Counted from the stretch's first letter, positions 15,235-37,661 are shown. The stretch is DNA of 64,000 nt from Marsupella aquatica (GCA_973895155.1 OZ316891.1:26405972-26469971), one strand, 5' to 3'. Numbers and translations: made by a program. The notes: a model not told the origin generated them from the letters alone.

Positions 15235-15541
15235 CTACTGGCCTCGTCGATTGGTGGTAGAATGATGTTGCCTAGTGCAGGCATCACAAAACCACTGACA
15301 TTCTGGAATATTGTGCAAGAGGTGTAAGACAAAACAAATGAAAGCCGTTGTTACAACGATCGCAAAGCAACATAAGATGAGCATCATCAATGCGACGACA
15401 AATTTGACAAAGATGATCCATAGATGGAACCCAGTATGCAGTAATTACAGTAGGATGAAGATTAGGTAGGTGGCATGGGGCACAATTTTTGAAGCGATCA
15501 TTGATGGTATGACCATCTGACCTTCCAACAAAAGCACTCAA
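15235..15541 (-). pseudogene. PHD finger at the C-terminus of integrase
   Basis: CQICRRIDDAHLMLLCDRCNNGFHLFCLTP, then after a frameshift LHNIPECQWFCDAC, giving the C4HC3 pattern. Confidence 0.9.
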
Positions 15542-16635
15542 GATACCCGTACTTCCTTGATTTGAAGAATAATCTGACCTGCGGAGGTGTCCAAAATATT
15601 TAGAGTCTGTCGTTGTAAGTAGATATAATCTCCAACTTCAAATTTGTAGATTTTGGGACGGTAGCTGCCACCACGGGTGTAAGCATAGCGCAAAGTATCC
15701 CGATGTTGAGCAATGTGAAGGTTTTGCATGGCCATAGGCATGACTCGCTTGAACAAAGCTGCTTTGTCTAAAATGACCTGAGCCCAAACCTTCTCATTGT
15801 CTAGGTCCACTATCTGGACCATGTGCAATGCAATGGCAGAGGGTGGTACCAGATGTCGACCAAATAATAGAAAATAAGGAGAAAATAATGAAAGAGCTGC
15901 ATGCTTGGACATACGGTAACCCATAGCAATATAGGGTAATTGTAGATCCCAATCAGCCTTGCTTTTGGTAAGGCAAATCTTGCGTTGCCCTTTCTTACAT
16001 GTCTGGATCATGCATTCTGCAAGACCATCAGCTTGTGGATGATCGCATGATGTCCTCCTATGATCAATGAGCGCATGGTCAAGGAGGTCTTGAAACTCTC
16101 CTCTAAACTCTGTTCCCTGATCAGTTAAGCATTCAGCACATGCACCAAATTGGTTGAGAACCTGTTGTAGAAATGTCTGGCTGGTGCTGTGGGATGACTT
16201 GTTACGCAGTGGCACTAACTCAATCCATTTTGAAAAGTGCTCAATCATAATCATCACAAAGATATTACCCCTAGGTGTAATTGGTAAGTCACCAGCCAAG
16301 TCACAAGACCAAAGGTAGAATAACCCCTCAATTGGCAGAGGTCGCAACTACATCTGGCGGTCAGAGGATAAACTCTTTACTCGATTGCATTCTGCACATC
16401 GAGCCAACACATCCCTCACTTGTGTGTACATACCTCGCCACGTGAAGTGAGGAGTGAGCAAGTTGTGAGTTTGTTTGATGCCAAAATGCCCCAACTTTGA
16501 ATGGACCTTTTGTATCAGTGCTGGTCTTTGCAACACACGCGGAACCACTCGATCCCCTGATGGGAATAGCCGGGTCAAATGGTTACCCTTCCATGCATAC
16601 CGACATGCTCTATGTTGGATGCGCTCTCTCTCCAT
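15538..16635 (-). pseudogene. pol: Gypsy integrase (H2C2 zinc site, rve core)
   Basis: HSKLGHFG...CAEC; WSCDLAG, LTDQGTEF, HPQADGLAE. Confidence 0.92.
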
Positions 16636-16996: not shown

Positions 16997-17330
16997 CACT
17001 AGTAGAAACCGGGGGGTATTTAGACCCCATTAAACGACTATTCAGTACCGTATAGGACTTGGAAACGACTGGGAAGGACTCTAGTCCTTTATAGGACTGC
17101 GAGTCGTATGTTTTGTTACTATAATCAACTGAGTCCTTTATAGAACTGGTTTATAAGTCGTTTAATAGTTTGGATTTTCAGTCTATTTTAGTCTTTGTGT
17201 GGGTAGCTTTGGTGAGTCATTTTTAGTCTTTTATGGGCTGCGATGATGAGTCGTTGGGAACGACTAAAAAGGTTATGGAGGGTAGTCTTTAAATATACTT
17301 TGTGGGGTATGTATAAGTCTTTTATGTCAA
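16997..17330. repeat. Left TIR and subterminal GACT/AGTC-core repeats
   Basis: AAACGACT, AGGACT, GAGTCG and TAGTCTTT repeated in both orientations; the same motifs occur at 33395-33530. Confidence 0.8.
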
Positions 17331-17822
17331 CTGGATATGAGTGATGAAGACCCCACTATACTACTTGGAATGAACCCACTCTTGTGCACAAATAACATAT
17401 TGCATTCATGTTTTATTGTGTACTTGGAATGAACTCACTCTATAAGTTCACCATTCATCATGTTAACATTAGAATACATAGTTTCAGAAAGCCATCTTCT
17501 ATACCATGTACACTAATATGAATTCACAGATTCAAACTTCATAGACTACAAAGAAGGTCACAAAGTATTCCTGTATACCATACACACTAATACTGAAATG
17601 ATAAAATAGATTCAAGTATCATAGACAATCACCATAGAGCCATAGTTTGACATCAATCACTTGTTTCATACATACAGAATTCAGAAATATCAATGTCACA
17701 CACAACGTCTCCTTCATCCTCTTTACCAAATGGAAAAATTGGTACAGATATTTCTTGGATCTTTCCAAGGCAATGTCAAAATGTGACACAATTCACATGA
17801 TGCTATCTACACTTGCATTCAG

Positions 17823-18311
17823 TCACTGCAGACTAACACACTCTGATGGCCAGAGCACAAGAGATCCTACTGCATCTGCAATTATTTCCTGAGGTGGATC
17901 ATCGTCTCTATTCGGAAATGGCAAATTACAATCAGATACAATCACTGTAGTCAACAACACTACTACATGGTCATCCGGGACCACTTTGCCATGGAATTTT
18001 GCATGATCCGGTCGCAAAATGCCTGTACCCACACATACCTGCGAGTCATCCTCCCATGATAGAAGATTATGGACTGGCTCTGCTGTGGCTATCACCTCCA
18101 CCTTACCCTGGCTGTTTTTCTTGGCTTTCCTGGGTGGCTTATACATGACATTATTCATACCTTGGTTGCGAGTCATGACTTTGGCATGAGTGTTTTGTGC
18201 TGGTGATCGAGAATTGGCTACACTCTTCTTCAAAGAATCTGCATCCATATTTGACACTTCTGATTGTGTAGCAGGATTTCCCTGCGACATCATCTCAGTA
18301 TCTGCCAACAT
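17823..18311 (-). CDS. Last exon of CACTA TnpA-like gene (Tnp1/En-Spm C-terminal domain)
   Basis: VGTGIL..HGKVVPDDHVVV...LPFP....IADAVGSLVLWP motif typical of CACTA second-gene C-termini. Confidence 0.7.
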   Translation of the reverse strand: MLADTEMMSQGNPATQSEVSNMDADSLKKSVANSRSPAQNTHAKVMTRNQGMNNVMYKPPRKAKKNSQGKVEVIATAEPVHNLLSWEDDSQVCVGTGILRPDHAKFHGKVVPDDHVVVLLTTVIVSDCNLPFPNRDDDPPQEIIADAVGSLVLWPSECVSLQ

Positions 18312-18989
18312 TGTACTTGCTTCAATTGAAGCATCTACAATCTTGCATCCAATGTTGCTCCCAAGTTTCGACGTCGCTTCACCCTACTCCCACTTGGTTG
18401 AGAGTCTGTCAACTCTGCATCAACTACAATTCAGTGTCATGTCCAACATAAGTCAATCACTCATCACATGTGCTAAATGTACATGTCACCAACCACAAAG
18501 TTGTCACTATCTCCTTACCATTATGAACAGCCTTCTTCCCCTTCTTTGCCATTGCCATATGCTCCATGTCTGCTTCTGTTGATCAATAAACACACCACAA
18601 TATTCAGGTTGAATCTATTAACCACTGAATTGTTGCTCAACATTCATATAGAGGAATTTAAAGCATCAGCTTACCTGATACCTCCTTGGCTATGGTCACT
18701 GAGGCACTGGGCACATCTTCTTCATTATTGCTCTTTGAATCACCTGATACATCAATCATGATGTCACTTCAGATCCCAGTTCATCCAACCAGTTCTTACA
18801 GAAAAGATTACCTCCAACCGGCTTAAGCTTCACAAAACTCCATGCACTTTTCAAATGTAATGTATTGGATCATAGCAGGTTACCTGTCTCAGCAACCTTC
18901 TTGCCCTTTTGCTTACTAATTACAGGGTCCTTCTCTGCCTCCACTCTTCCTGCATTCAAACCATTCACTCAATTCATGAAAACTTACTT

Positions 18990-19271
18990 CTAACATTTGA
19001 ACATAGGACACAATGAACAATGGGCCGGTGTCATTTCCATACCTGTGTCAGATTTGCCAATTCCCTTTTTTGTTAACAAGGACACACTTTGTACAATGTT
19101 GCCCTCATTGTTTGGTTGGGAACCACCCAATTTTTCAATCACAAGCTTGAAATTAGATTCCACTGATGCAAGAAGGTTCGCTACAAATGCCTCCACAATA
19201 TCCAAACGATCAGCCAATTTACTTTCCACTCGAGGGAGTCCACACTCTAATGACTTCAACCGTTCACACAT
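18990..19271 (-). CDS. Probable internal exon of TnpA-like gene, coiled-coil
   Basis: Heptad-like RLDIVEAFVANLLASVESNFKLVIEKL; same strand; flanked by GT/AG-like sites. Confidence 0.4.
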   Translation of the reverse strand: MCERLKSLECGLPRVESKLADRLDIVEAFVANLLASVESNFKLVIEKLGGSQPNNEGNIVQSVSLLTKKGIGKSDTGMEMTPAHCSLCPMFKC

Positions 19272-19622
19272 CTCTGTGAGAGTTGTAACAGTTCCCTGTC
19301 ATAACACAGCTTACATATCTCAGATAACTGTCCCCAAGAACTGGTTGCTTACTTCCTACTACATTTCTTTCTGATGCTCAAGGCCAAATAGTCACAGAAC
19401 ATATAGAATTACAACATAATCACCTGTTTGGAAGTTACACTTGTCACCTCACTCCTTTGTTTCATGAACTCCTCTCTCACTTCTTGTGCTGATGGTTCTT
19501 CACCTGTCAATTTCTTCTGCAGTCCACATCAACATACATATGAATGAAACCAAGTGTTGATTGTCAATGAAAATGTAATAATGGTAGCAAGATGATAAGT
19601 TTGAGGCTTACTATCAGGCATG

Positions 19623-20285
19623 TCACTGCCTTACCAATTGTTCTTTCACTGGAGCATAACTTCCTCTCCCAGCCTGTGAAAGGTGTTTCACTTTGCCTCG
19701 AGCATTTGACATCAGTTCACTCTTGCTCTGTCCAGCCTCCGACATGAACCCTTTGATTAACCGTGTCCATTGATCCAGTTCCAATGATGGGGGTGGTGGC
19801 ATTCTCCTGTTAGAACCATTGTCTATCCACATCCTTTTCAACCTATGCCTCTCTTGTTTCAAAATCCTCATTGCATAATCTGATATGCAATCCTCAACTG
19901 GGCCCTTACCATCATTACCAACATACTCCCACCGTTCAAGAATGTCCTTGCAGATAGCAGCCCAATCAGCTTTGTTCTGACTCCTAAACTCTGTAATGCT
20001 CAAATCTAACCAACGCAATACTTCTCCTCTTAGGTCAGAATGCCAACAGTTCTTACCATCACATGTGGGAGTTATCCAACCTTCGGAATTCACTTCTACT
20101 TTACCAAATTTGTTACTGTCTCCTGCCTTGGTACTCCCTGAAGCGCTACTAGGTGTCCCTCCACGGCCTGGTGTCCCCCCACGGCCTGGGGTCCCTCCAC
20201 GGCCTGATCTCCCCCCACGGCCTGGATTGCATTGTCCAAACCTCCCTGGAGTCCCTGCACATTTACAGGATCCATTTATAGTCAC
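19623..20285 (-). CDS. CACTA TnpA-like exon (Ptta/En/Spm transposase_24-like) with GRGGTP repeats
   Basis: RHRLKRMW..PPPSLELDQWTRLIK..SELMSNARGKVKHLSQAGRGSY; 18-bp repeats at ~20155-20225 encode GRGGTP. Confidence 0.75.
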   Translation of the reverse strand: MTINGSCKCAGTPGRFGQCNPGRGGRSGRGGTPGRGGTPGRGGTPSSASGSTKAGDSNKFGKVEVNSEGWITPTCDGKNCWHSDLRGEVLRWLDLSITEFRSQNKADWAAICKDILERWEYVGNDGKGPVEDCISDYAMRILKQERHRLKRMWIDNGSNRRMPPPPSLELDQWTRLIKGFMSEAGQSKSELMSNARGKVKHLSQAGRGSYAPVKEQLVRQ

Positions 20286-20618
20286 TTACATTAGGTAAGT
20301 ATGAATCATAAATCCCGCTGCCAAATATACAGTGGACTTCAGAGCAATTCTGCAATGACCAAGTTACCTCTCCCTTGGCGCATAGATGGTTCTGGACCAC
20401 CTGTCCTATTGCTTTGTCTTGATGAATTAGGGGCGTTTCTCTCGCCTGTGAATGATTGCCTCCTATCTGAACGTGGATGGCCTTTGTTGTTTTCGTGATT
20501 GTCCCAATCAGAGTCTGCATACCAACAGGTACATGCCACACTCATGGACCTGTAAGATAAACTCTTTGCCCTAGCTACACATCAGATAAGTGCATATTGA
20601 GCTAAATCTCTACTACCA

Positions 20619-20990
20619 TCACAAAATCACTAGCACAAGGCACTTACTTGTCCAATCATCCTCCTCACCTTTCCATTGCCCTCTGTACCCGTCTCTACCA
20701 CGCTCTGGGTGTTCATATTCATCCCATCCATCTTCTGCTCCATCATAGTCATCATCATAATCATCAGGCGTCCCTTGCCAATAACTCTGGCTCCTTCTAG
20801 GGTATGGATTATGTGATTTCTCTCTAGCTGCCCACCTACCTGGGACTTGATGAGGGCCCTGTGCATCTTGCACAGGTGCATTTTTCTGTGAGCCCCCTGC
20901 ATCTGGGTCTCCATCCATATCCAATCTTTCCTCTTCACCCCACTCTCCAAGCCCCATGTCTGTCTCCATGTCATCACCCTCTTCCCCCAT
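20619..20990 (-). CDS. Acidic, Gly-rich probable first exon of TnpA-like gene
   Basis: ATG ORF rich in D/E/G; GTAAGT donor near 20650. Confidence 0.45.
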   Translation of the reverse strand: MGEEGDDMETDMGLGEWGEEERLDMDGDPDAGGSQKNAPVQDAQGPHQVPGRWAAREKSHNPYPRRSQSYWQGTPDDYDDDYDGAEDGWDEYEHPERGRDGYRGQWKGEEDDWTSKCLVLVIL

Positions 20991-21167
20991 AGCTTTTGCA
21001 CAGCACCCACAACCAAACAGGGAGAATCAGCACACTAAATTCAAAGTATCAATCAATTTCATGCATATCCAACTATCCTAAACATCATTCCAGGCAGCAA
21101 TTCCCGTTATGTGACTCTGTGCAGGTAGTCATCCTCAACCTCATACTTGCCAATCGCCAGCTGTTGC

Positions 21168-24100
21168 CTATTGCAAATCATCAACCTCATCATATTCCAT
21201 TTGCCTAGGTTCATCATATGTCTCTCTCAATGTTAAGGGGATGTAGTCAGTCCCTGCCCGAGTTGGAAGTACAGTCTCATGACTAGGATGCTCGAATGCA
21301 GCATGGTCATCCAAACTGAACTCTACTTTACTTCCATCCATCCGCCTGTTCCGTGCTTGGCTATGGCATACCACCCTCCAGCCATGTGACTCCTCCACAT
21401 CTGCAAAGAAAGCCTGTTCAACTTGGCTAGGGAAAACAAAAGGCTCAGACCATTCTGGTACTCTGGACCTAAAATTGGCCAACAAGAACCCATCATGATC
21501 ACGCTTCATGGTGGCCCTTGGTCTCTGCCACTCTGATTTCACCCATGATCCCTTCATCAATATCACTGGGACACTTGTGTTACCATAATTCAACACCCAA
21601 ATGTCGGTCAACTCCCCCACGTAACCCATCTTCATCCACCCCCTCTGTTCTTCAGAGGTTCTCTGCTCAAACACAGAAATCAAACCACAATCATATGATA
21701 CACAATGGTCACCCTGCTCATCCCTCACTCGATAATGATTTCCATAAGCTCTCATCCGTTTGTAGGTCAGAATAGACAATCGTGGTGGCACAGATAGAAG
21801 ATACAAATCCTTCTCCATATCTGGGTGATGTCTACTATGCTCTCGAATTGTCACCCGAATCCACTGCTCGAACTGTGGGAAGGGATCCTGCTGCCCAGAG
21901 TGTGCAGCTTTTTGCATATCATATTCCCTGCATTATGAGGTACAGGCATAGTTAGGTCTAAACAACACATGACAACCTAAGATCACCCTTGGAACAGACA
22001 AGAAGCATCACAACAAAGGCAAGTCAATTCAATCACTCACCTCCACCATGGTTGCATAGGCTCTGTGTTTGCCAGCACATATGAATGAGCCTTGTCTCGA
22101 ATCGCAACAGGCAGCTGAACAGCACGTCCCACACCTTCAACAACCTCGCCACTCACTCCATCATCTTCACCAGATTTCCAAACTCTTGTCATAGCTTCAC
22201 CAGACCCAGCCATGTACTCTGTTAGGAATCCCAACGTCTCATCCTTAATGTACCCCAATGCCATGGAAGCCTCTGGCCTGTAGTATGTTCTCACATGACC
22301 TTTCAACAACTTCATGTATCGCTCCATAGGGTACATCCATCTGGTACTGACTGGCCCATACTGCCCTAGCTCTTCTACCACATGGATTAGGAGATGAGTC
22401 ATAACATCAAAGAAAGCAGGGGGGAAGTATATCTCCAAGTCACAGAGGACATAAGCAGCATCCTGCTTCAACTGCTCCAATCCTTGGGGATCCCACACTT
22501 TCACACATATACGGCGAAATACATTGCACAGTCGAAGAATGACATTACGGACTGGTTTCTGCATGAGACCTCTGAGGCATAGGGGCAGAATGTGCTGCAT
22601 CAACACATGGTAGTCATGTGTTTTCATACTGCCAAGTTTATTCTTTGTAATATGCTTCTTGAAGGCACCAGCATAGCCAGAGGGCACTTTCAGACAACTC
22701 AATCTATACAAGAATGTCTTCCATTCATCCTGTGTGCACACATAGGGAGCTTGGAACTTGAGAAGTACATTGGGATTGCTTGCATGGGGCTTCAACCAAA
22801 GGTGAGGGCGAATCCCCTTCTGTTGCATATCAGCTCGAACTGCTCCTGTATCTTTCTCACCCGACAAGAACTTCAGCAAGCTCTCACAAATATTTTTCTC
22901 AATGTGCATGACGTCCACATTGTGTTTGCTAGGCTCGAATTCCTGCACTCCACAAAGCAAAGAATTCAACAACAGAAACACTAATTAACCACATAGGAGG
23001 ATTGTAACCAACATCAATCCACCATTGCTCCAATCTAAAATTGCAATCATACAGGGGCTGGAGGCTAAGTACATTACCCTCCAGTACTCCAACTCCAAGT
23101 CCATCAAGGTCTGTCTTTTCACACCGTGTTTCACCACTGGATCCTCAAGTTCTCGATCAGTGGCACTTCTCTTGTCCCAATCAGCCTTCCTGGCTGCCCA
23201 CCTCAGGACTTGCTCTCTGGTGACCCTCTGTGGTGGGCCACGAAGCTCTGTTTTGTTGTTGAAGTGTGCAATTTGAGACCGTGTGTGCCTGTAAGGATGA
23301 TCAACAGGCAGATACCTTCTATGCCCCTGAAATTTCATACTGTGCAGGGCATGCGACCACTCACTTGTCACATTTTTCCCACATGGTGTGCACCCCACAT
23401 AGCCCTTTGTCACTCGTCCAGATATGATGCCATGGCCTGGGTAATCTGCTATATCCAGCAAACAAATTGCATGCAGTCTAAAGGGGCTGGGTCAAAGAAG
23501 CCCCTTCAGAACATCATGGGTTAACACCCCTTCTATCCACAAAGTCTTCCACTCTTCCACTGCTGGAGCCAACATGATATCTATGAATTGCTCGGTCACA
23601 GAAGCTGGTCCAGGGATTAACAGCACCATCATGACAAAAAACCTCTTTGTAGTCATCCATGGGGGAAGGTTGTAATTTAGCAGCGTAACCGGCCAACATG
23701 AATAACGGTTGTTTTTGTCTCCAAATGGGTTTACTCCATCCAGTGATAGACCAAATCGAAAGTTCCACTTCTTTGCAGCAAACTGTGGCCACCTCTCATC
23801 AACAAATTTCCAATGGTTGGAATCTCCAATGTGACGCTGCAGGCCATCACTGCTCTTGTTATCAGGAGTCCATGTCATCAGCTTGGAAATGGCAGGGCAT
23901 CTAAACAGACGTTGTAGTCTAGGAATGAGAGGAAAATGACGAAGAACCTTGGCAGGGTGTGTACATTTCCCTACATTCTTGTACCTGTGCTTACCACAAT
24001 GAGGGCATGTCAATTTATCTGCATGCTCTTTGCGAAAGAGAACACACCCATCAGGGCATGCGTCAATAGACACATAGTTCAGCCCAAGGTTAGACATCAA

Positions 24101-24868
24101 TTTCCTAGCCTCGTACATATTTTTTGGAATTGAATTACCATCTGGTAACACATTTCGGCGCAGGAAGGTCAACAACTCTGTCACAAATATATTGGGAACA
24201 TTGTGATTGCCACAGATGTTCAACAACAACACGACAAAACCCAGCTTGGAGCAGTTCGACCCCTCGTAGATAGGAATGCAAGCTTCTTTGATGTGTTTTG
24301 GGCCCCCAAACACCCACTCCCTCTCTGCTGCACCTTCCCCAATGTCAAAGTCAGGTTGAGCTTGGCCGTCGCCAATGTGTGGCTGCGGTTCATTGTCCTC
24401 TTCTGATTCCACTGTGTCGTAAAAAGCATCAAGGTCTTCAAAAATCTCTTGAACCATTCTTGGGACATCCATCCCACCGTCCTCAGTGACTGCCTCTGCA
24501 TCTCCATCTTGGTCATCCACGTTCTCATGTTGGACCCCAGGACCATCCTCTGCACAGTCTATGTCCTGCTCTACGTAGTCTCTACGCCTAGCTGTATTAG
24601 AATCCACAAAGTCAGCTCTCCACTCTTCATCAGAGGAGTCTTCTTCTGCTGGTACATTCCAAACCCTCCACCGAGGGTGCCTTTCATGCCGCAGCAGGTG
24701 AAGGTGCACAGTGTTCAAACTCAATGACTTGAATCCTTGGCACTGTGTGCATGGGCATCTCATCCTCCTACTCCTACCTTGGGCGGCCCGGGCTTGTTCA
24801 TGCATCCACAATTTAGAATCATGATGCCTAATCCTAAATGGGTTGTGAAGAGGCAACCTTGGAGCCAT
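21168..24868 (-). CDS. tnpD: CACTA TnpD/Tnp2 transposase, 3 exons, one in-frame stop at 23492-23494
   Basis: CPCTQC, DACPDGCVLF, LSLDGVNPF, YSCWPV..YNLPP, DYPG, DVMHIEKN, MKTHDYHVLMQ, RWMYPMER, EPFVFPSQVEQAFF; introns at about 23077-22943 and 22040-21929. Confidence 0.93.
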
Positions 24869-25194
24869 CACTATACACACGCACTCAGCACCCTGTCATT
24901 TTATTATGCAAGTGAAAAATACACTTCCTGTTAAGGATTTCACCCCCGACTGTACTTGCCAAAATACGTAATGTTCCAAAAAAACAAAAAAACAAAAAAT
25001 ATAGGTGCCTGAGTCATGTACCTATTCTCAAGTGAATGAGACAAAATTCCTAAATGTTTGAGGGTGTCAACTCCTCCGCTGTCCTCACATGTACTGCCTC
25101 TGCACGTACATCCATGACCATATCAGAGTCCAATCATGTATAGTCATAGACACAGGTGCCAGGTGCGAGACCGGTGTGAGATGTCCTCATCTTA

Positions 25195-25764
25195 CTACCA
25201 CATCAAATACGGATACCAATCCTGTTGTCGATGCCACTCAGCCCTGAGGTACTCAGGCATGTACATTAAGTCATCAAGGTCTAAACCCTGCTCATGCCAT
25301 GGTGGTCTTCGATCCGTGCCTACAAGCAGTGGCAGCAGTGCCCTCCATGGTGCACATGTTGCTACCAAGTCCCTCCACTGGGTACTAATTAGTCTATATT
25401 TGCAGATATCTTGTGCGCCAGACACCACAAGAACCCTCGGCCAGACATGTGTAAGAACTATATCATCTGCCAAATCAGGCAACAAGGAACCACCTACAGC
25501 ATCGTGCTTGTCTAACTCATCTGCTGAAAAGTAAATGTCCTCTTCCGACTGTGCATCCTCATTCACCACAGCATTCACAACACATCCAAGGTCTGCAGGC
25601 ATTATCTCGGATGGAGCTACACTCTGTCTGGTTACCAATCCACACAAGTAAGCCCAAGCAGTAGCCATGCACGATGCAACCCGTAGGAGGACCCTACATA
25701 GGGCCTGACGGTCTGGAAGAGGCAGCATACCCACCAAAGTCTTCAGCCAAACAGAGCCCAGCAA
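25195..25764 (-). CDS. F-box-like cargo ORF
   Basis: LLPDLADDIVLTHVWPRV...ICKYRLISTQWRDLV fits the plant F-box motif; no kelch/LRR domain follows; start codon uncertain. Confidence 0.65.
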   Translation of the reverse strand: MLGSVWLKTLVGMLPLPDRQALCRVLLRVASCMATAWAYLCGLVTRQSVAPSEIMPADLGCVVNAVVNEDAQSEEDIYFSADELDKHDAVGGSLLPDLADDIVLTHVWPRVLVVSGAQDICKYRLISTQWRDLVATCAPWRALLPLLVGTDRRPPWHEQGLDLDDLMYMPEYLRAEWHRQQDWYPYLMW

Positions 25765-25904
25765 GTAGATTCACAGTCACACCCCACGCAGCAGGAAACA
25801 ACAATCACTTCAACTGCGACCAACCATGACAAGATGAGTTAGTTCAAGGATCACATTTATTACAAAATTGTGTTTTATACAAAAATATGAGGGACTCCTA
25901 CTCC

Positions 25905-26753
25905 TCACTCTCTCCCACCTTTGCTAAGCATACATCTCTGCTGAATCTTGGAGGGCCAGGCCTCAAAAATATCAAAGTCCCAAGCATTCTGTCGCTTCCC
26001 TCTAGCTGCTGATTCCAGAAGCCAATCAGGGGAAAGCACCCAAAGATTGTTGTTCATGACAAAATCACGCACTGTTGTCTTAAAGAATTTTCTGCATATT
26101 TTCATGTATGACAGACCTACAACATGAGTGGAGGTTTCTGTTAGACTCTCCTCCACTGTCCCACCTAGCTCAACAACTATAGACTTGTACAGTCTGCACT
26201 TAGTCTCCCCAATTCCTTCTTCTGCAAATACCACACTGAACCCCTTCATAATGGTATTTCTCTCCTTGCCATGCTTATTCAATATAGCATCTGCACGCAT
26301 AGGATGGTGTCCTATGTTGACAACAGGTCCATATTGGACAGAAGCAAAGTTGGGTTTCTCTGCCGCTGCTTCATAGGCTTCCTTTTCAGCCAAAGCCTCT
26401 GCAGTGGCCTCCTCACTCTCCCACAACTCATATTGCTCAGTACTCTGTACACACCTATGTTTAACAGAATCGGTCAGCCAAGAGACTTCAACTACTTTTA
26501 GACCTTGGTTGGTAATGGCAGAATCAATGAAGGACCATGACCACTTGTTCATCACATCCAGCCATGTCCCCGCAACAACATGTGTAGTCTGTGGAGTGAT
26601 GTCCTTGACTTCAGTCCCATGGAACTCTGAGAATCGTTTTTGTACGATTGGCCAACTCACTTGGGTGAACCCATAGTGGCCAGGAATCAAAATGGCTTTG
26701 ATTCCAGCCAACAGAGGCGGGTGGTCAACCTTTGTACGTTTCCTAGAGGCCAT
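25905..26753 (-). CDS. Tandem BRCT-domain cargo protein
   Basis: Two repeats: ITPQTTHVVA...VVEVSWLTDSV and ELGGTVEESLTETSTHVVG...VLSPDWLLESA; N-terminal basic RKRTK. Confidence 0.85.
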   Translation of the reverse strand: MASRKRTKVDHPPLLAGIKAILIPGHYGFTQVSWPIVQKRFSEFHGTEVKDITPQTTHVVAGTWLDVMNKWSWSFIDSAITNQGLKVVEVSWLTDSVKHRCVQSTEQYELWESEEATAEALAEKEAYEAAAEKPNFASVQYGPVVNIGHHPMRADAILNKHGKERNTIMKGFSVVFAEEGIGETKCRLYKSIVVELGGTVEESLTETSTHVVGLSYMKICRKFFKTTVRDFVMNNNLWVLSPDWLLESAARGKRQNAWDFDIFEAWPSKIQQRCMLSKGGRE

Positions 26754-27351
26754 GTACACACGGGCCACCTAATCACTGCAGACCGGAAGATAATGCGTTC
26801 ACCTGATAATCGGAGGGCCCTTAAAATGCTGCGTTTATAACTTGGTCCAGTCCAGTCGTCTGGTGAGTCTCTGCTCCGATTCCAAACGGGAGAAATATTG
26901 GGACAAACGTACTAGACACCTGCAAGCATGCACCTCATAGTTTGAATATGTGCCTTCACAATATTGAAGGTGACAAGTGCAATTGTTTTGTGATGCCACA
27001 TACAGATGTTGTAAATGGGCAGACATTCAATGAGAATACAAAATGTTGGTACACTTTAAGGGAATTCTCGCAAATTAAATAGCCTTGTAACTTATATGCT
27101 CATAATGAGAAGTCCTGATTTAATTTAAGCAGTGTCATGTAAGTCGTGATCAAAATGATTGCAGAGTTAAAAAAGTTCCTAGAAGGCTTAAGGGCAGTTT
27201 TTGAAGGCATGTACCCAGGAACAAGTAATGAACTTAGGGTACTTGTTGCCTAAGCATCCTCTCCTACAGAGGTCCTTCTTCTCAAAATTGGAATGTCTGC
27301 AATCTCCAAGGTATCCACATCAGGTGCACTATGCATGTATATTATTCAGGT

Positions 27352-28032
27352 TCAAAGCCAAGAAATGTGATCTCTCATGGGAGTGTGCAAAGTAGGATCT
27401 ATGGCATGGCGATGACAATAGAAGATCCATCGATCAACACCATGTGCAGAGTGATCATAGATGTGTCTGTCACAAGCATAGCCTTCTGCTTGACGCTCCT
27501 TCAAACAATGAAAGTGCCACATGGTGGGACACCTAACACAGTGGACTATGTCCACCCAGAAATCTTCATCGTGCTGACCACATGCCTTGCACTTATGAAG
27601 TGGGCAAGCTGTGGCAAGATCGGGCAAACATGAAAAACAAAAGAACCTCACACAATATCTGTCAGGGCATTTCCTAACAAGTGGTGGAGCATCAACAGAG
27701 CCCTCATAAGACCCCAACTTCCCACACTGTGCACACTTAGCCTGCTTCTCCAAACAATCAGTGCACATCCAGCCTCCCTGGTGTGCTGACGGGAGGCCCA
27801 CCCCTGGACAGTTGTTTTCTGCAGCAAGGTCAGACTCCGGGTTGAGGTGGAAATGCCTCATGCAAGGGCCCTCACATATGGCTAAGCCACCACCATCGTC
27901 ACAAATGGCACAACAATGAGCTGCCTTCTGGAAAATCTGACTTGCGGAGAAGTTACTACCATCTGGCCCAACTACACCTGTGTTGCTCACCTCTGTCCCC
28001 CGCTTCTTGGCTCGGATTTTAGGGCGTGCCAT
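27352..28032 (-). CDS. EDM2: EDM2-type composite PHD-finger cargo protein (reader module only)
   Basis: CAICDDGG..CEGPCMRHFH, CAQCGKLGS, CPLHKCKAC, CVRCP..HFHCL, IFYCHRHAIDPTLHTPMRDHI; colinear with the EDM2 PHD region as recalled (CAICDNGG..CEGSCLRSFH..CPLHKCSVC..YCQEHEIDEELLTPVRDHV). Confidence 0.85.
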   Translation of the reverse strand: MARPKIRAKKRGTEVSNTGVVGPDGSNFSASQIFQKAAHCCAICDDGGGLAICEGPCMRHFHLNPESDLAAENNCPGVGLPSAHQGGWMCTDCLEKQAKCAQCGKLGSYEGSVDAPPLVRKCPDRYCVRFFCFSCLPDLATACPLHKCKACGQHDEDFWVDIVHCVRCPTMWHFHCLKERQAEGYACDRHIYDHSAHGVDRWIFYCHRHAIDPTLHTPMRDHISWL

Positions 28033-28701
28033 GCCTACGCATGAGATAGATAGTACAATTTAGCAGAGTGCACGGACAATACAATTTAGTGCAGTGTACA
28101 AAAAGTACAGTGTAGCATATAGACTAGAGTGGCAATTGCTACTGCAATGAAATGTTCACACACATGTGCAGAGTAGACATACTTTTTGGTTTGTTGAGCC
28201 CACACTAAAAACTGATCCCCTCGTACAATAGCTCCACCTACACCTCAATTTTGTGGCTATGATTCACCAAAGGAGATCTGCAACAAGATTTAATGCATTT
28301 GAATCACATATAACAGTCGTGACATGTAAAACAGGCATTTTTTGAACAGGATTGGTATCAAGCACTGTGATCAGGGTTGTAATTTATACATCCTAAATAG
28401 GCTATGATAGTGAATGAGACAAATAAGTTAGGCAGAAATCACTTTTTCCAGGTTATCACATGGCCCATTAATTCCAGTCTTTGAAAGGAGACTTTTAAGT
28501 GAGCTTGCTAGCCTCTTAAATTAGGATATTGTACTTAGTGCAGCCATAATAGGATAAGTTATGTACTGTTGACCCTAAACCCTGGACCCAAAATTGGTCA
28601 TAATTCAAAATCTTAAGTAAATATCCTCTCTGTTCAAGTCAAAGTGTTAAGTTATAGGTCAATGGTCTCTGGTTTGTGCATGCGGTGTGACAAGTGGTCC
28701 T

Positions 28702-29151
28702 CTAGAGCGTGTGATCCAAACATGTGTAGACACCAAAGTGACCGGTGGTGGGGTCTGGGAGGGCAGGACAAGTGACATCGCCAGGCACACTGCAGGATGG
28801 CGAGTGGTTCCAGATGATACATTGTGCTCTGTGAAAAAACCGACATCCAAGAGAACGGTCATCCAACTCTAGGCCAGAAGCCCTACAGGCAGGACAGTCA
28901 TATTGGCAACTGTGCACACACCCTTGGGCCCTAATTTGTGGCGGGTCATGTATGAGAGACAGAAATACCAAGGATGTTGGGAAGGGTGGAGAAGCAGGTA
29001 CAGGCCGGCTGTAGTTGTTCCTGGCAACAACTGGGTACTCAAAGTACCATGCAGACTGGGCTGGAAGGATCCCAAGTCTGACATACTCAAGGCGCAACAT
29101 CTCTGCCTTGCGTGCAAGCCGCACATGTTCAGCGTTGCGGGTCCTCACCAT
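28702..29151 (-). CDS. Cys/His-rich ORF of unknown function
   Basis: ATG start, 149 aa, CVHSC..DCPAC...C..FH...C..WNH; same strand and spacing as the other cargo ORFs. Confidence 0.45.
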   Translation of the reverse strand: MVRTRNAEHVRLARKAEMLRLEYVRLGILPAQSAWYFEYPVVARNNYSRPVPASPPFPTSLVFLSLIHDPPQIRAQGCVHSCQYDCPACRASGLELDDRSLGCRFFHRAQCIIWNHSPSCSVPGDVTCPALPDPTTGHFGVYTCLDHTL

Positions 29152-30534
29152 AAGTGTTGCTTTTGTGGAGATGTCGTGTGTTCACGTCCTCTGATAAGCA
29201 CCTTCGATCAGCAAGGTGAGCAGGAGCTGTACTTGCCTCACCAACAGCAACCAACCTTAAATTATCAGTTCCCACTCACTGTGTCATTCCATTGGTTCCA
29301 GCTAGGGGTCACAGTGTAAACATAGCATGAAACACTCCTAATCAACTTGCTTACAAACTACAATATCCAGAAAGAGTGAAAGTCTCACCCTCCAGTGAGC
29401 AGCAGAGAGGTAGTTCACTAGATGTGTTGATGTGCAGTTAAACCTCCACTATTGCTTACTTCTGGTGTATGCTGCTCAGAAGAAGACATATTAGTAGCAG
29501 CAAATTGCAAATAATGGCCATAAGCAAACTGTGAGAGTTTGCAGAATGCTACGACAAATCCATCACAGCAGTGCTCCACAGGAATGAAACCAAGCAAAAT
29601 TTGGTGACCTCGGCCAATGACAAGGCCAATGTAGTGAACAATCCTTGACCGATCAGGATATGGATTGGAATTACAATTAGTCAGCTCTTCTTCTTTGTTT
29701 TCTAACTCTGGGGGAAATGAGCATGACCAGGGAATTCTTTGAGAAATAGAAGTGCACAGGGAAAATGAAATTGGCTCATTCAGCTGCGCAAGACCGGCCA
29801 TTGCAGCAAACTTGGACAGTTGTTCCGCAATACATAAAATACCCTGACTTACATGCAATCGATACAATCTGCTTCTGTTGGCTGTCCTATAGCTCACGGT
29901 AGTGCCGTTGGGATAGGGTAAGTAAATATTGCCATAGCTGAAGCACATTGAGCTTGCAGCAAGAAGTGAAGGAGCATGGCCAAAAGCAGAAAAGACAGAC
30001 AGGTTTTACAAGAAGAAACTAACAACCGCCAATCTGCTCAAATCCGCTGCATAGATCAAACCCTCCAAACTACACAGCCCTCCTTTGAAAACAATCCAAT
30101 GTGCTTTGGCTGGTGGATGACAAGGACTGGGAGAAGAGGAAACGTCTACACAATCAATCCCAATGACGGGACACAGAGACCAGGCACAGAGAGGAGTTGT
30201 GCTTAGACAAAAACCACAAATTGTAGCATGGGCGCCATAGCATTGGGCGGCAATGGGAAGAATTACATCAAATGAGTGGACAGAGAATTAATGAACAGTC
30301 CGGTTATAGGCAAACAGCGACTGATGCCCTGATGCAATGAAACACGCATTGACATAGCGGAGGGACATAAAAACTACATAAGCCAACTTACTGACCTTTT
30401 AAGGCCCACAATTTCAAGGGGAGGGACAAAGACAGCAATAACAGACGCAGAGACAAAGCTGTACTCTGTCAATTGAGTAGGCAAGTGGGTGGGTGAAGAT
30501 CAACAACCAATGTAGCAGCGCAACCAGAGTAGCA

Positions 30535-30650
30535 ACAAAGAAGCAGGTTGCCCTCAATCTCCTATTTTTCAAGCAGCTCGTGCTCGCGGTCAATCTCCTA
30601 TTCTGCAAGCAGCTCACGCTCGTCCCTCTTGTTCTGCAAGCAGGTCATTC
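30535..30650. repeat. Degenerate 33-bp tandem repeat, about 3 copies
   Basis: AAGCAGCTC.TGCTCGCGGTCAATCTCCTATT units. Confidence 0.6.
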
Positions 30651-33394
30651 TTGTCGGCGATGGTGCAAGCTGTCCTCCTAAACTCTGACACTCAAAATGA
30701 AAAGACCAAGCACCTCCAATCTGTTTGATCCCTTCCGCAAGCAGCCGAGCGGCAGACGATAATGTAGGGATCAAGAACCAAGTGCCAGGCGGACATTGCA
30801 CAAAATGAGGACCAGGGGCAGAGACAAAATCTACCGAAATCTATCGAAATCTACTTCTTGGGGTCCAGCCCACGGATGGACATCATGCAAGGTGGTCAAA
30901 AATGGTAAGTGCAATTGTTGGAGAGCTGTACTCGCGATTACTAACGGTGCATCCACAAAACGCGTCATCAAGTTGTCAGTGCGGCCACAACAATTTTGAC
31001 AGTCTCAGGATCACAGGTCCACAAACAAGTTGCAAATGAAGACACACAACGTCCAGGAGGGAAAGTCCGCAACACTAACCCTTTGTAAAGCCCCCGAGCT
31101 TACCTTCTAGCTGCCGACGCAAAGAGAAAACCTACTCGGACACTGAAGCAACCCTAAACTCAAAGTCTCACCTTAGCGCAACAACTCCTGGATTGGATTC
31201 AGCTAGCTCAGGCTCAATGAAGCATGTCGCCTCGGGCTCTCCGGATCCTCCCAAGGCAGCAAACAAGTTAGGGTCCACGGTCCTTGTACCTTCACCACAC
31301 CGTTGTGTCCTTCCCAATGCCTCCTCTGTAGTTGCGTCTTGTCTGCAACTCTACAGCTCCCCGTGTTGCTCTGCCGCACTTAGTTATATTCCAACGCCCG
31401 ATCGTGACCAAAAAGAGTTTTCTCCTGCTGGACAGCACTAGGCATTTATTCAATCTCTTGATCACGCGTAAGCAGCTACAGGTATGAATCACTCAGTTGG
31501 CAGCTCAATACGCTTACAGCAAGAGGGCGCAATAGGTAGAAGCTCGCGCTACCTAGACCAGCACAAGGACAAAGCATTAACATTGAAACTGTACCATGGA
31601 GCTGGAGAAAACCACAGAGTAATTGAAGCCTAACAATACCCTTCTTAGCTCCCGACTCCAAACTCTCGGCTCCCAGTTTGCAAGAACAAGCACTATGAAA
31701 ATATGGATTCCCACATTGACTGTGTCCGCAGAACAGATGCAACCCGCATGCAACTTCACCAGCTCAACGGCAGCTTGACAACTGAAGGACCTCCCAATGA
31801 GCCTCACGGCCTCCCGATGCTCGTTATGGGTGCAGCAAAAGGGTCTATACCACAACTGTGACCGAGATTGTCACCCAAAACCTTGAAGAAACCCCAACCT
31901 CCGACTCCTCAAACTCCGACAAGCTCCTCACGAACGTTGCAGTAGCCACAACCTTCTTCGCCCTACCAGCCAAAAACTAAATGTCCCTAAAGGAGATCGA
32001 GCAGGAATGCAGGTCTATGAGTAGACTGCAAGCGCAAGGTTAGATCACTGCAACTGCCTGAACACTGCTCCTCGAGAGCATAAACAAGCACATAACGCGC
32101 GGGAAGTTCACTCCGCAATGGTCGCAAAAAGTGGGCAACACTGAAAGGAAAACCCTACGTAAAACCCCGAACACTCCACCCCTCACGTTCTAAGTTCAAT
32201 GACAATGGCGAAAACTCCAAAGAGACTCCCAAAGTGAAGTTTAGTGCCTGAAACCGAATTAGGGGAAGCCACTCAGCCTTACCGTTTGAGTGAGCCGTTG
32301 AGTGTCACCCAAAGTGGGACAAAGCTACAAAGTGTTACTGCATGGCCAACTTAGGCAATGAATGGTCATATTTGCACATACATGGTCGGTAGTGACATTT
32401 TATTGCACGCTGTAATCAGGATTAAGGTTGCCCAACATTATATCCGATCCTAAAATGCAATATTCCCGGTGCAAGAATGTGACCTAGCTCTAATGTATGA
32501 AAAAGGACCGGTACAAATCTACCTTTGTGCATCTTGACCTTTTATAGATGGATTTAGTAATGGCCAAGAATATCTTGACCATCCCTCCATGGTCCAACCT
32601 CCATGAACCCCACTTCATTAAACCCAAAACCTTTTTGGTCACAAATAAGGAAATTTAATGAGTTATGCCCCTTGCTATCACCCTCTTTATAGATTTATTT
32701 TTTTGTTTGAAATTTTACATTTATTCCGCGTGAACCCCACGGATGGGGGAACCAGTAGGCCAAATGGCATCATAAAACCTCAACACCCAAAGGAGGCAAT
32801 AATAAAGAGTTACTCAACCAGGGTCATCAGATCAGGCAAAGATTGCGAAGCCGTTCTTCTAGTGGTCCATGCAACAAGTAACAACTAGGGAATAAGCACT
32901 AGAAGGCGCAGTAGGTCAGCATAGTGTAAGTGTAAAGTGTCAAAGCATTGTCTAGTACTAAATTAATCCACCTGATTAGTAAGAAGGGGGTGTATACTGT
33001 AATGGGAAAAAGAAAAAAAAACCAAGGCATGAGCAAGGGCCACCAAGAGTGGTGCAGCTATAAGCTATAGGGATTGAACACAATGCGGGGGGGGCAGTGG
33101 CACTATGTATGAGGAAATCATGGGAGTATCGGTGTCAAATGAGTCGACAAAACTCCCAGATAGCCACACAGTATAAATCAATCTCATAGAAGGCTGCCAT
33201 CAATGGAGGAAACAATTTGACACGACCCACATCTGAGAGTGTGAATTCGCTCGATCTCCAGCAGTTCTTTGGCACTCGATAGACGTCGGTGCTTTCGGCT
33301 CAAAGATGAAGGAGAATTACCCCTCCTCAACATAGAGTGAACATTACCCATGATGTGCTAGACTATTCACCCTTCACAAAGTAGCAAGGTTACT

Positions 33395-33551
33395 TCTCAT
33401 AGTCTTTTAGTGAACCATAAAACTCTCATAGTCTTTTCTAGTCTTCAACAAAACCGGTGCAATGGGTGCGAGTCGTTTTAAGTATGGAAAAAGGACTTAG
33501 TGGGCATAGTCCTATAAGGTATGGTCTAAATTGCCCCGGTTTCTACTAGTG
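33395..33551. repeat. Right subterminal repeats and TIR of CACTA
   Basis: TAGTCTTT, GAGTCGTTT, AAGGACT; ends CCCCGGTTTCTACTAGTG. Confidence 0.85.
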
Positions 33552-34889: not shown

Positions 34890-35975
34890 TTAACTGGGAC
34901 CTCTCCCCCCAAACCATTGGTTTGAAACCTGTGGAAGATGTAAATCTATGGGAGAAAGTGTCTCAATAGCAGCTACCGCCTTCGTGGTATGTTGCGCGTT
35001 GGTGAGCATTTGAAAAGCCAAGCAGGAGGACAGTACCCATGAAAATCCTGTGAGGTCAAGCGCTTGGCCTAGCAATTTGTTGCGTTGATGTTTTGTAAGA
35101 CTAGGGTGCAGAGTGCTCCCTGTCTGAAATCCCATAGCGCGCTCGCGCTCCTCTAGGGATGGTGGCTGCCACTGTTGTCTGGCCTGTCGGAATACCAGCC
35201 CTAGACCATCTCCCCAAAATGCAAAGGAGCCCGAGAAGGATAGTAGTATGGGCCATACTGCCCATGGTGTGCCTATGCGGTTGGCTGGAAAGAACGGTGC
35301 ATGTTTAGTCTGTACCACTGATCGAGGCAGACTGCCAGGATCCAAAATTTGTTGTAATTGTTGTGAAGGATCTGGCTTAGTCTCCAACAGAACCAACTTA
35401 AGAATATTATGTGGTGCTAGGTTAGTCCACAAATTGCGTAAACAATGGGCATAAGACCCGCATTGAGCTGCATCAATGAGGAATGGATTGCTCAACAAGT
35501 GTTGAACAACAGCAAAATCTTTCAACACATCAGTCTGAGAGTCAAACTGTGTAGGTGCATTTTCCAAGATGTAACCCACACATGGGTTGCGTTGTTGTAT
35601 CCAACCAAGCACCCGAAGTAGATCCTTGAACAACATTGAATGGTTATCTCGTAAACCTCCACCTGTGCCTACTACAAAAAATCCTTGGCACTCCCAGCCA
35701 GCAACTACCAAATGTATAGGGCCTAGTAACTGGATGTGGCGTTGTTGGATAAGTTTGATATCCGGAGGAAGAAATGTGAGAGCAGGCTCCCATGCTGTGG
35801 TAGAAAAGAGTTGGAAATACTGTTTACTTAGGGTGGCAAGATGTTGAGGCAGCAATAAGCGTGCGGCAACATCTGTGTCATAGTACACATACTTGTGTAT
35901 CCGTAATCCATACTTGAGAGCGGCCTCAAGCCCAGTAGCTAGTCCCCCAAATAATTCCACAAATGTGATGCCTTT
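34890..35975 (-). CDS. C5 DNA cytosine methyltransferase domain (DNMT3-like, copy A) inside gypsy pol
   Basis: Motif I VELFGGLATG, IV AGWECQGF, VI ILENA, VIII AHCLRNLWTN (copy B AYRLRNLWTN), IX EERERAMGF, X RNKLLGQALD, in canonical order; more than 350 open codons. Confidence 0.9.
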   Translation of the reverse strand, partial: KGITFVELFGGLATGLEAALKYGLRIHKYVYYDTDVAARLLLPQHLATLSKQYFQLFSTTAWEPALTFLPPDIKLIQQRHIQLLGPIHLVVAGWECQGFFVVGTGGGLRDNHSMLFKDLLRVLGWIQQRNPCVGYILENAPTQFDSQTDVLKDFAVVQHLLSNPFLIDAAQCGSYAHCLRNLWTNLAPHNILKLVLLETKPDPSQQLQQILDPGSLPRSVVQTKHAPFFPANRIGTPWAVWPILLSFSGSFAFWGDGLGLVFRQARQQWQPPSLEERERAMGFQTGSTLHPSLTKHQRNKLLGQALDLTGFSWVLSSCLAFQMLTNAQHTTKAVAAIETLSPIDLHLPQVSNQWFGGRGPS

Positions 35976-37661
35976 TGTGATGCCTAGCCAAGAATCATTA
36001 GGCCAGTTTAAATAGTAAAATCAGGAGTGTACCCTAGGAAACACCTTAGTATAGTAACAAAAACAGGGAAAATATAAACAATTAAGGGTAACTATGGAAC
36101 CCGAGCCGAGGCTGAAAGTAAGGACACCAGGGGAGGGAACACGATTAGGGTTAGGGCACGCTAAGTACCGGCGGCTATGGGTAACCAACGGGAAGGAAGA
36201 CCAGCCAGGGGGGTAAGGACCGATCGCAAGGAATGACGATTCATTTGCAAGCACAAGCCAAGCGGACGACTACGGGAGGCCAACTACTGTCCGCTGCTCA
36301 GGCAAGCACTCAGGGTGGAAGCAGATACCGACAATCAACTCAAGAAGAGTATGAGCAACATCAATCAAGTTGCTCATTTTTGGGGATACCTGTTAGAACG
36401 GGCAACTGAGTACATTGGGACATACGAGGACAAAGAATTGGAGAGAGCGGCTCGAGAACGGTAGGAGCTTGCTCGGCTATGGGAGCTGCAAAAGTCTGCC
36501 TTCTTAGGAGGAGAACTCATTACAGCTAAATTCTTGTGGACGCCTACTGCCGACAAACTCGATGATCTGCTGTTTTGTGAGGACAGAATAGTCGGCATTC
36601 GGGGGGCCATCAACCGCTGTAACGACATACATTGGGAGTTGAAGGGTAGCACGGAGGGGTGGACAAAGGCAACCGTGCTAGGAGAAACATCCACAGTAGC
36701 CGCTATGAAGAGGAAAGGGAATAACAATGAAGAAGCCACCCCTGCGAAAAGAATGAGGTCGGCAGCACCCAGGAAACCAACAGAGCAGGGAAGCAGGAGG
36801 CAAGCGGAAGCCAAAGAGGAGGAGGTCGACCCCGTCAATGCCATTCCAACAAGAGATGACACCTAGAAAGGCTGGGCGGCAACCCTCCCCGAGGAGGTGC
36901 AATTACACTTTGCATGGGAAGAGGATGCATGCTTTACGGCTATGCAGACTCGGAAATACCAGGGCTTCATGGCCGGATCCGGCTTGGAAGCCTTCGTAAA
37001 GTTACCATGGCTGAAGCCGGAGGTGTCAGGTTCAGACTTACTAGAATTCATGGGATCATGGGAGCCGAGACCAATTCCATAAGGGTGTATGGGAAGGATT
37101 TCTATCTCACTCCTTGGGTGATTGCCAAAGTGTTTGGCTTGCCGATGGGCAATAAGACCAAAGTAGATACCAGGAAGACCTTGCCAGACAAGGAGTTCCG
37201 GTCGTTTCCAGGGCCATCAACAAAGAATGGCTTCTTCCAAAACACCTGCATAAACCCGCACATAGGAGAAATGATCAATTTCTTGCGGGTGACCATGCAT
37301 TGCAACTTGCCGAGGGCAGAGATCGGCAAGGTATAGGTCTATCTGGCGGAGAGGCCAGACCCAAGCTGAGACTACAACGGGTACCTCCTCACCCAACTAA
37401 AGAAGATCTTGAAGGAGGAATAGCTGGTGATCGGCATGGGAAGCGTGTCCCGACTTGGTTATCATATGCCGCTGTTGTGCCGGTATGCCCGAAGTCAGAT
37501 ATTCGCCCCGGTACTGCCCCTGCAGGCAAGAGCACCAAAGGAGGTTATGGAACCGAGGCTAGCAATAGAGAAACCAACCCAGCCCGATAGTCCTACAATC
37601 GAGCAGGTGTTTAGGCCGAGGAAGGAGGACTTGCTGATGCAGCAACCAGGCATGCACCACA
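35976..37661 (+). repeat. 5' LTR, internally deleted
   Basis: 36521-37656 matches 49382-50178, then jumps via ATGCA to the LTR end ATGCACCACA (seen at 53149-53158), followed by the PBS. Confidence 0.85.
36351..37656 (+). pseudogene. N-terminal part of the LTR-encoded accessory ORF
   Basis: ATG at 36351 in frame with 36534 and 36897; GLEAFVKLPW..LLEFMGSW..RVYGKDFYLT..IAKVFGLP, homologous to 62788-63200. Confidence 0.7.

Follow-up and report, generated by a model that had tools for sequence, protein, structure and literature searches.

How does a DNA transposon with six genes in a single orientation express all of them, and what might the genes beyond its transposase do for it? The question is raised by a complete CACTA (En/Spm) element of 16,555 bp, which occupies positions 16997..33551, on the minus strand, of a stretch of 64,000 nucleotides from Marsupella aquatica (GCA_973895155.1 OZ316891.1:26405972-26469971; this whole stretch is called the window below, and positions are counted from its first letter). 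All the genes of the element are on the minus strand. Four accessory open reading frames (ORFs) precede the transposase genes tnpD and tnpA, and an earlier note on this DNA had taken them for an operon-like kit of chromatin, repair and ubiquitin effectors, made by splicing one leader exon near the right end of the element to alternative acceptors. The presence of this conserved accessory-gene cassette, with which the element is a multi-gene DNA transposon with co-opted host domains, is well founded and rather surprising; the claim of a shared leader is not favoured by the sequence alone.

Conserved accessory genes in a CACTA element

The four accessory ORFs are uninterrupted, co-oriented and arranged in tandem directly upstream of tnpD (ATG at 24868), at 29151-28702 (ORF1), 28032-27352 (ORF2), 26753-25905 (ORF3) and 25728-25195 (ORF4), as the earlier note had described them. 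Homologs of similar length were found for each of them at 28-82% identity, most of which have the same start and end; in the case of ORF2, ORF3 and ORF4, the searches were limited to 0.55-1.75 times the query length, and all the homologs came from Logan, none from NCBI or UniRef. The fact that the homologs keep the length, the start and the end suggests that the cargo consists of selected genes and not of random captured fragments, and we judge the four accessory genes to be a stable, selected gene set, intact and conserved as stand-alone proteins.

Other copies were compared in eight of eleven DNA runs (X1, X2, X5, X6 and X8-X11), which are silent on expression. Runs X1, X2 and X5 cover 30 of the 30 bins of the element, and X9, a low-depth relative (about 87-95% identity), covers 24 of the 30, namely all those from 16.9 to 29.8 kb at a depth of 1.6-13, so that tnpA, tnpD and all four cargo ORFs are covered evenly. 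None of the contigs listed spans the whole cassette, the gene order in other copies being seen piecemeal. Cargo content differing at random between copies, which had been named as the case that would speak against the proposed kit, was not seen: the set is stable, as judged from the homologs and from the even cover in X9.

The cargo could in principle be passive, as in Pack-CACTA elements, consisting of captured host fragments with leftover splice sites and having no function for the element. CACTA elements do capture host fragments which are spliced promiscuously (Tgm-Express1, PMC1947982; Tpn1, PMC5105172), and the present copy is itself broken, its tnpD being interrupted by a stop and its tnpA frameshifted. 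We hold this explanation to be very improbable in view of the full ORFs, of the starts, ends and Cys/His columns conserved down to about 30% identity, of a PHD gene (ORF2) which is intronless as against the four intron-like inserts in grass EDM2-like transcripts, and of the Logan-only origin of the matches to ORF2-ORF4. Pack-CACTAs are moreover non-autonomous and carry fragments without a transposase, whereas tnpD and tnpA are present here and the cargo is complete. The broken state of the copy nevertheless weighs against a set of genes serving the element, as does the fact that the cargo homologs are proteins known apart from their genomic context, which may or may not lie in CACTA elements.

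The identity of the element itself rests on several features. Its terminal inverted repeats (TIRs) are 18 identical nucleotides (CACTAGTAGAAACCGGGG) at 16997 and 33551 of the CACTA type, and both ends are flanked by TTA, a target-site duplication of the 3 bp typical of CACTA elements. Subterminal repeats with a GACT core accompany the 5' TIR (33400..33551; five copies in 33406-33513) and the 3' TIR (16997..17300; 11 copies in 17039-17289), and no copy is present in the interior. One contig of run X8 skips the entire element (16997-33551). No match was obtained in an Rfam search of the element.

The tnpD transposase gene (21168..24868, minus strand) consists of three exons and has Pfam matches to Transposase_21, DUF4218, DUF4216 and Transpos_assoc, the first three of which define the TnpD transposase of CACTA elements; removal of the introns at 23077-22943 and 22040-21928 gives a frame of 1151 codons, with one in-frame stop (23494-23492) in the present copy. 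It is followed, at the place expected of tnpA, by a many-exon tnpA-like gene (17823..20990, minus strand; nine predicted exons), whose eight introns of 93-140 nt preserve the frame and whose Transposase_24 match (E 0.014) is below the cut-off. The last exon of tnpA is frameshifted in the present copy, and the runs X1, X2, X5 and X6 all have four extra nucleotides at 18341, which adds support to the intron model of this gene. The ten predicted internal introns of tnpD and tnpA measure 93-140 nt, have a GC content of 0.39 and all end in CAG; among the joints listed in the eight DNA runs (15 of 84 and 15 of 18), none falls on them. A joint at 22033-22150 in X2 has GT..AG ends but lies within a tnpD exon, between two similar 7-mers, and was rejected as an intron and classified as a DNA deletion.

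Depth was uneven in some of the runs. In X6, the summed depth on the PHD gene (27596-28179) is much above that on tnpA, and in X10 and X11 only tnpD and a short stretch of the BRCT gene (26437-26997) have depth, in short pieces of diverged families. There is a hint here that diverged high-copy families in other organisms may carry PHD, BRCT and tnpD genes.

The four accessory proteins

ORF2 (27352..28032, minus strand; 226 amino acids (aa)) encodes a stand-alone cassette of EDM2/NSD-type PHD fingers with a basic N-terminus, as judged from its homologs and from a match to an EDM2-like plant protein. Its matches to the NSD/EDM2-type Pfam models are below their cut-offs; it aligns at 30% identity over 210 aa (E 6e-23) with L002, a plant protein of 1293 aa, and its top match in the Atlas (0.93) belongs to Streptophyta. 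L002 can be taken for EDM2, a reading that is drawn from its layout (RFD + PHD) and not from a database label. These matches bear out the earlier assignment of an EDM2-type PHD. Five of 115 candidates were accepted as ORF2 homologs (217-245 aa, 36-82% identity); together with ORF2 they show 53 invariant columns, and an HISW motif terminates all six. In a ten-row tree, from which L004 and L006-L009 (partial, intron-retaining or unrelated) were omitted, the six cargo-type PHDs are separated from four host proteins with a support of 100/100 and long branches.

ORF2 resembles plant EDM2 and the stand-alone EDM2-like PHD proteins throughout the cassette, from the CAICDDGG to the RDHI motif, at about 30% identity. 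Unlike plant EDM2, it is borne by a transposon, has no introns, has a shorter PHD2, and consists of the PHD cassette alone, the N-terminal RFD and the C-terminal methyltransferase-like region being absent. In all four host proteins, an acidic residue which helps to bind unmodified H3K4 stands two places ahead of the first Cys; the six cargo-type PHDs all lack it, and their binding may therefore differ from that of the host proteins. Both the missing domains and the missing residue count against a plain copy of EDM2 function. Since the grass EDM2-like transcripts keep four intron-like inserts within the PHD cassette, the intronless cargo gene is likely to have arisen via an RNA step or intron loss.

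A metagenome scan with the PHD alignment gave nine loci out of 221 candidates, corresponding to eight grass-type EDM2-like transcripts and one unrelated PHD protein, and no transposase was found beside these nine. The viral contigs searched for the PHD cassette and for TnpD gave no match. Some of the grass-type transcripts (L001, L003, L004-L007) encode short stand-alone EDM2-like PHD proteins with a basic MARKK-like start; their layout is similar to that of the cargo gene, but they have introns.

ORF3 (25905..26753, minus strand; 282 aa) has two BRCT domains, matched in two stretches by PF00533 (E 6.5e-14) with a score of 52 bits against a cut-off of 21, and here the earlier label was confirmed. 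Its only accepted homolog among 755 candidates, P0006, is 62% identical and has the same start. The two domains are 24% identical to each other, which suggests the duplication of a single domain. The best matches in PDB were LIG4 (E 0.006), BRCA1 and TdT (E 0.29). In the phosphopeptide-binding tandem BRCT proteins of the BRCA1 type, the repeats are closely packed and Ser/Thr-Gly and Lys form a phosphate pocket; a weak alignment of ORF3 with BRCA1 (E 0.1) places other residues at these positions, and its repeats are about 55 aa apart. In character, these BRCT domains may be close to the one at the N-terminus of plant DNA polymerase lambda.

In ORF4 (25195..25728, minus strand; 177 aa), a weak F-box-like motif comes after an acidic patch, and three of 100 candidates were accepted as homologs (51-55% identity). 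The F-box match (E 0.082 in ORF4 and 0.001-0.08 in the homologs) reaches 13-19 bits against a cut-off of 20.5 and is below it in all four proteins, so the "ubiquitin effector" proposed earlier depends on a sub-threshold match. The structure model of ORF4 was unusable, with a predicted local distance difference test score (pLDDT) of 37.

ORF1 (28702..29151, minus strand; 149 aa), the Cys-rich ORF of the earlier note, starts with MVRTR, carries a C-x-H-S-C-x3-C-x2-C-R motif and belongs to no known family. Among 1.84 billion representatives, ten matches at E <= 0.001 were found; two of them, P0015 and P0018, were dropped as repetitive Cys-rich sequences. The eight homologs kept are 144-200 aa long and 28-56% identical, seven of the eight having the same start Met, and the Cys/His motif is present in all of them. 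Family and fold searches yielded no Pfam family, no PDB sequence match under E 0.4 and no usable Atlas match; structure comparisons gave Foldseek E values above 1 and a best Z of 4.6 with VIA (pLDDT of the model 69), which does not imply a new fold. The product is probably a zinc-binding nuclear protein. A further co-oriented ORF of 176 aa lies upstream of ORF1, at 29418-29948 on the minus strand. It has no Pfam match above the cut-off and is mostly outside the part common with X9; it was not counted as cargo and may be spurious.

Expression of the six genes

The reading which we hold tentatively, at slightly less than an even chance, is that the accessory genes have separate mRNAs, transcribed from two or more promoters, with short introns in the 5' untranslated region (UTR) and some choice of acceptor. 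ORF1 and ORF2 would depend on a CpG-rich promoter on the 5' side (32.35-30.55 kb). ORF3 would be expressed unspliced from a second promoter, of the CpG/TATA type, at about 26.95-26.8 kb, which could also supply ORF4 or tnpD through splicing from a donor at 26802. With a shared donor at 26802 and two promoters, some acceptor choice is to be expected, rather than a single leader for all the genes.

The earlier proposal was built on En/Spm producing TnpA and TnpD by alternative splicing from one promoter. This premise is valid for maize En/Spm, the tnpD of which lies in intron 1 of tnpA (PMC2613891), and does not extend to all CACTA elements: in four Arabidopsis EN/SPM families, TnpD and TnpA are encoded by separate head-to-tail genes (PMC13547354), which have independent start sites by cap analysis of gene expression (bioRxiv 10.64898/2026.08.24.746577). 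Applied to the present element, it would place one subterminal promoter and a leader exon ahead of alternative acceptors before all six ORFs, with the cargo in a long first intron of tnpD/tnpA. We regard this as possible, if doubtful.

All six acceptor motifs on which that proposal was based (at 29191, 28035, 26776, 26769, 25814 and 24893) are present, including TATCAG at 29191..29196 on the minus strand, 39 nt before the ATG of ORF1. Of the two possible branch motifs, CTAAC upstream of 25814 fits YTRAY and GCTAA upstream of 28035 does not. Scored among the 1187 AGs of the element with a small matrix built from its own ten introns, the acceptors rank in the top 12% (29191), 54% (28035), 7% (26776), 62% (26769), 49% (25814) and 10% (24893); the matrix penalises TAG because all ten training introns end in CAG. 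When each upstream region was shuffled 500 times with its dinucleotides preserved, summing the best acceptors of the ATG-free stretches gave P values of 0.012 (five ORFs) and 0.018 (with tnpA), values which are partly driven by long ATG-free leaders: these stretches total 437 nt before the starts, as against 181 expected (P 0.008), and each contains a YAG. The long stretches agree with a single leader, and are also to be expected of the 5' UTR of any translated gene. When the ATG-free length was kept fixed (2000 dinucleotide shuffles), P rose to 0.075 for the five ORFs and 0.19 with tnpA, the best single acceptor had a P of 0.13 and none was below 0.05, so that the motifs stand where the note had seen them but, taken together, are no more than marginally above chance. 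This test is weak, being passed by just five of the ten true acceptors, and real splice sites at the cargo therefore remain compatible with it.

These numbers leave room for the acceptor motifs to be due to chance, with every gene having a small promoter of its own, either in the spacer or within the gene that precedes it, and giving an unspliced transcript. There is an AG every 14 nt, a YAG is expected within the observed ATG-free length in 70-100% of the shuffles in the case of five of the six ORFs, and TATAAA is found in three spacers. We find this explanation unlikely, given that out-of-frame ATGs 7 nt before the ORF2 start and 28 nt before the tnpD start would be removed only if the acceptors were used, and given the intron-like composition and the alignment break at 28090-28183 described below.

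Most of these sites have local donors, at distances of 95-165 nt, which speaks against a single leader. For ORF2, ORF4, tnpD and tnpA, a GT donor is found 95-148 nt upstream of the acceptor, with a GC content of 0.34-0.39 in between (all the candidates given here are on the minus strand). Before ORF2, a candidate 5'-UTR intron of 148 nt (28035..28182; GC 0.39, T 0.37, like the ten internal introns) ends 2 nt before the ATG; it would follow a putative ATG-free 5'-UTR exon of 95 nt (28183..28277), with a strong acceptor TTGCAG at 28278, a donor GTATGT at 28182 and a TATAAA at 28388. The 5' part of this candidate intron does not align in X9 or X2, although the sequence on either side does: the X9 alignments break at 28090-28183, a pattern also seen within introns A3 and A4, and those of X2 share the left edge of the break. 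This gives a hint in favour of the candidate intron 28182-28035. Before ORF4, a possible intron of 95 nt (25814..25908) includes the CTAAC branch motif, a TATAAA (25879) and an AATAAA (25861); its removal would leave the length of ORF3 unchanged, with GGRD instead of GGRE at the end. The candidate 5'-UTR intron of tnpD (24893..25021; 129 nt, GC 0.34, T 0.39) has a weak donor and ends in TGACAG, 24 nt before the ATG, and that of tnpA (21035..21146; 112 nt) has a GT donor at the intron length of the element.

Two CpG-rich regions are candidate promoters. The block before ORF3 (26754..26950, minus strand) has 11 CpG in 250 nt, as against a mean of 3.8, and is ATG-free over 173 nt (P 0.006); it contains a TATAAA (26839), acceptors at 26920, 26776 and 26769 and donors at 26919 and 26802, and could be a second promoter or, behind the TTGCAG at 26920, a non-coding 5'-UTR exon of ORF3. 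The second region, which may hold the main promoter and the leader (30550..32350, minus strand), is poor in ATG and has 10-14 CpG per 300 nt, compared with 0-9 across most of the element, with TATAAA at 32691 and 32546, a telobox-like motif at 32157 and strong donors at 31171, 31103 and 30395. The donor at 31103 is in the top 0.3% of the GTs of the element and, like those at 30395, 29852 and 29459, is very strong, which speaks for a single leader; TGACAG and TATCAG also terminate two real introns of the element, which favours the same model.

This 5' region of about 4 kb (29470-33400) varies among the copies, and the CpG-rich block in it is less conserved than any other part of the element. 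X9 has no cover of 29803-33168, and the contig of X9 is unlike the element for 179 nt beyond 29470, the similarity stopping about 11 nt above the strong donor at 29459; X1 and X2 are listed with deletions there (198, 844 and 1291 nt), and X1 has a loose end at 29333. A single leader in such a region is harder to defend, all the more so as the candidate leader 32130-31104 includes nine ATGs. Fast promoter turnover could also explain a variable 5' block, and the variability therefore weakens the single-leader model without refuting it. The local donors, the second CpG/TATA block and the unconserved 5' region would fit a layout with several promoters at least as well as one leader.

Several observations tell against separate mRNAs from more than one promoter. 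The local pairs of donors and acceptors are non-significant (P 0.07-0.14), the candidate ORF3 intron 26919-26776 has an un-intron-like GC content of 0.49, and the presence of TATAAA in three of the five spacers (before ORF2, ORF3 and ORF4) is within chance (P 0.16). No TATA was found before tnpD or tnpA, which favours splicing from far upstream, and three of the spacers, of just 176, 326 and 177 nt, are tight for a 3' end plus a promoter; both these points, together with the common orientation of the ORFs and the maize precedent, are to the credit of a single leader.

Setting, related systems and proposed function

The site of insertion is a Ty3/Gypsy-like retroelement: the CACTA element lies in its RNase H region, between the reverse transcriptase (RT)/RNase H and integrase matches of the flanking Pfam search. 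This retroelement carries an ORF upstream of the RT at 34890-36020 (minus strand), also found at 8980-9654 (plus strand), which has no Pfam match and which, to judge from its appearance, may be a DNA cytosine methyltransferase. It also encodes a PHD finger that follows its integrase (15284-15637, E 2e-8), and a second copy is present at about 86-88% identity (8957-9584). Elsewhere in the window, there are two Copia-like retroelements (434-6260 and 55953-62659) with pairs of long terminal repeats about 93% and 99% identical, degenerate tandem arrays at 43052-43292 (19-nt), 57116-57335 (9-nt) and 8646-8853 (about 40/70-nt spacing), and a third exact CACTAGTAG at 9783-9791 (plus strand), which has no evident partner in the window and is possibly the end of another CACTA element. 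Judged from the homologs alone, the host would be a plant.

The element shares with maize En/Spm the CACTA TIRs, the 3-bp duplication, the subterminal repeats and a tnpD upstream of a many-exon tnpA-like gene, but it has four extra conserved genes upstream of tnpD and twice the size; the shared leader is a feature of the maize element (PMC2613891). Arabidopsis EN/SPM2, 5, 6 and 9 are similar in their non-overlapping head-to-tail tnpD and tnpA genes, and differ in that no PHD or F-box cargo is mentioned for them in the main text of PMC13547354, where "PHD" and "F-box" give no matches, nor BRCT cargo in its passages on these families. Pack-CACTA, Tpn1 and Tgm-Express1 likewise combine CACTA ends with host-derived sequence and splice sites; they are non-autonomous and carry fragments, unlike the complete, intronless and conserved ORFs found here beside a transposase. 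The large En/Spm families of Chondrus crispus (16-20 kb, 4-5 ORFs) are comparable in size and ORF count, as far as the single sentence devoted to them in a review goes (PMC6431247). The VANDAL Mutator-like elements (VANC, KAONASHI/Ulp1) are also autonomous DNA transposons with accessory genes, some of them co-opted from chromatin factors of the host: for VANC, such an origin (from MAIN-like proteins) has been put forward (PMC13547354), and the capture of Ulp1/KAONASHI has been reviewed (PMC13317346). They belong to another superfamily and have other domains, and anti-silencing has been demonstrated there, as against a proposal from sequence here. In the literature searched, Repbase entries being outside the search, no relevant paper was found on CACTA elements with BRCT, F-box or EDM2-type PHD cargo; the 962 Spm proteins reported recently include various unnamed accessory proteins, and the supplements may list such cargo (bioRxiv 10.64898/2026.08.24.746577).

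The accessory genes probably help the element to withstand chromatin silencing by the host, and the PHD protein gives the most specific clue to how. Host EDM2 binds to chromatin marked by H3K9me2 and represses the use of proximal polyadenylation sites (PMC7529245; PMC3632883), and Spm elements activated by TnpA retain both H3K9me and their internal methylation (bioRxiv 10.64898/2026.08.24.746577). If activated CACTA elements are heterochromatic inside, the PHD protein could be a private EDM2-like reader: it would recognise H3K9me2-type chromatin on the element in the manner of EDM2, and would either promote transcription to full length across the silenced interior or act as a competitor of the host protein. 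Going by family knowledge, the BRCT protein would be an adaptor to the repair of DNA breaks left by excision, and ORF4 might act as an SCF adaptor or decoy. A bolder version, which we consider quite improbable, combines these steps with a single leader: one terminal promoter would feed acceptors over about 12 kb of silenced chromatin, the element's own EDM2-type PHD protein would keep the transcript from being polyadenylated too early, allowing it to extend to tnpD and tnpA, and the BRCT and F-box-like partners would steer repair and protein turnover. If it were true, the single-promoter/PHD cassette would be a counter-defence acting on RNA processing and not on DNA methylation.

TnpA-like proteins are seemingly confined to flowering plants (bioRxiv 10.64898/2026.08.24.746577), and the range of TnpA would widen if the host of the tnpA-like gene at 17823-20990 were not a flowering plant. 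The known counter-silencing factors of transposons, VANC and TnpA, have DNA methylation at sequence motifs as their target. A transposon which keeps a stand-alone version of the PHD cassette of EDM2 (the protein which in the host ties H3K9me2 to the choice of polyadenylation site), a BRCT protein, an F-box-like protein and a new Cys/His family would offer four compact candidates for other routes of counter-defence, and the element would be a clean test case for the way in which six ORFs of one orientation are expressed in a multi-gene DNA transposon.

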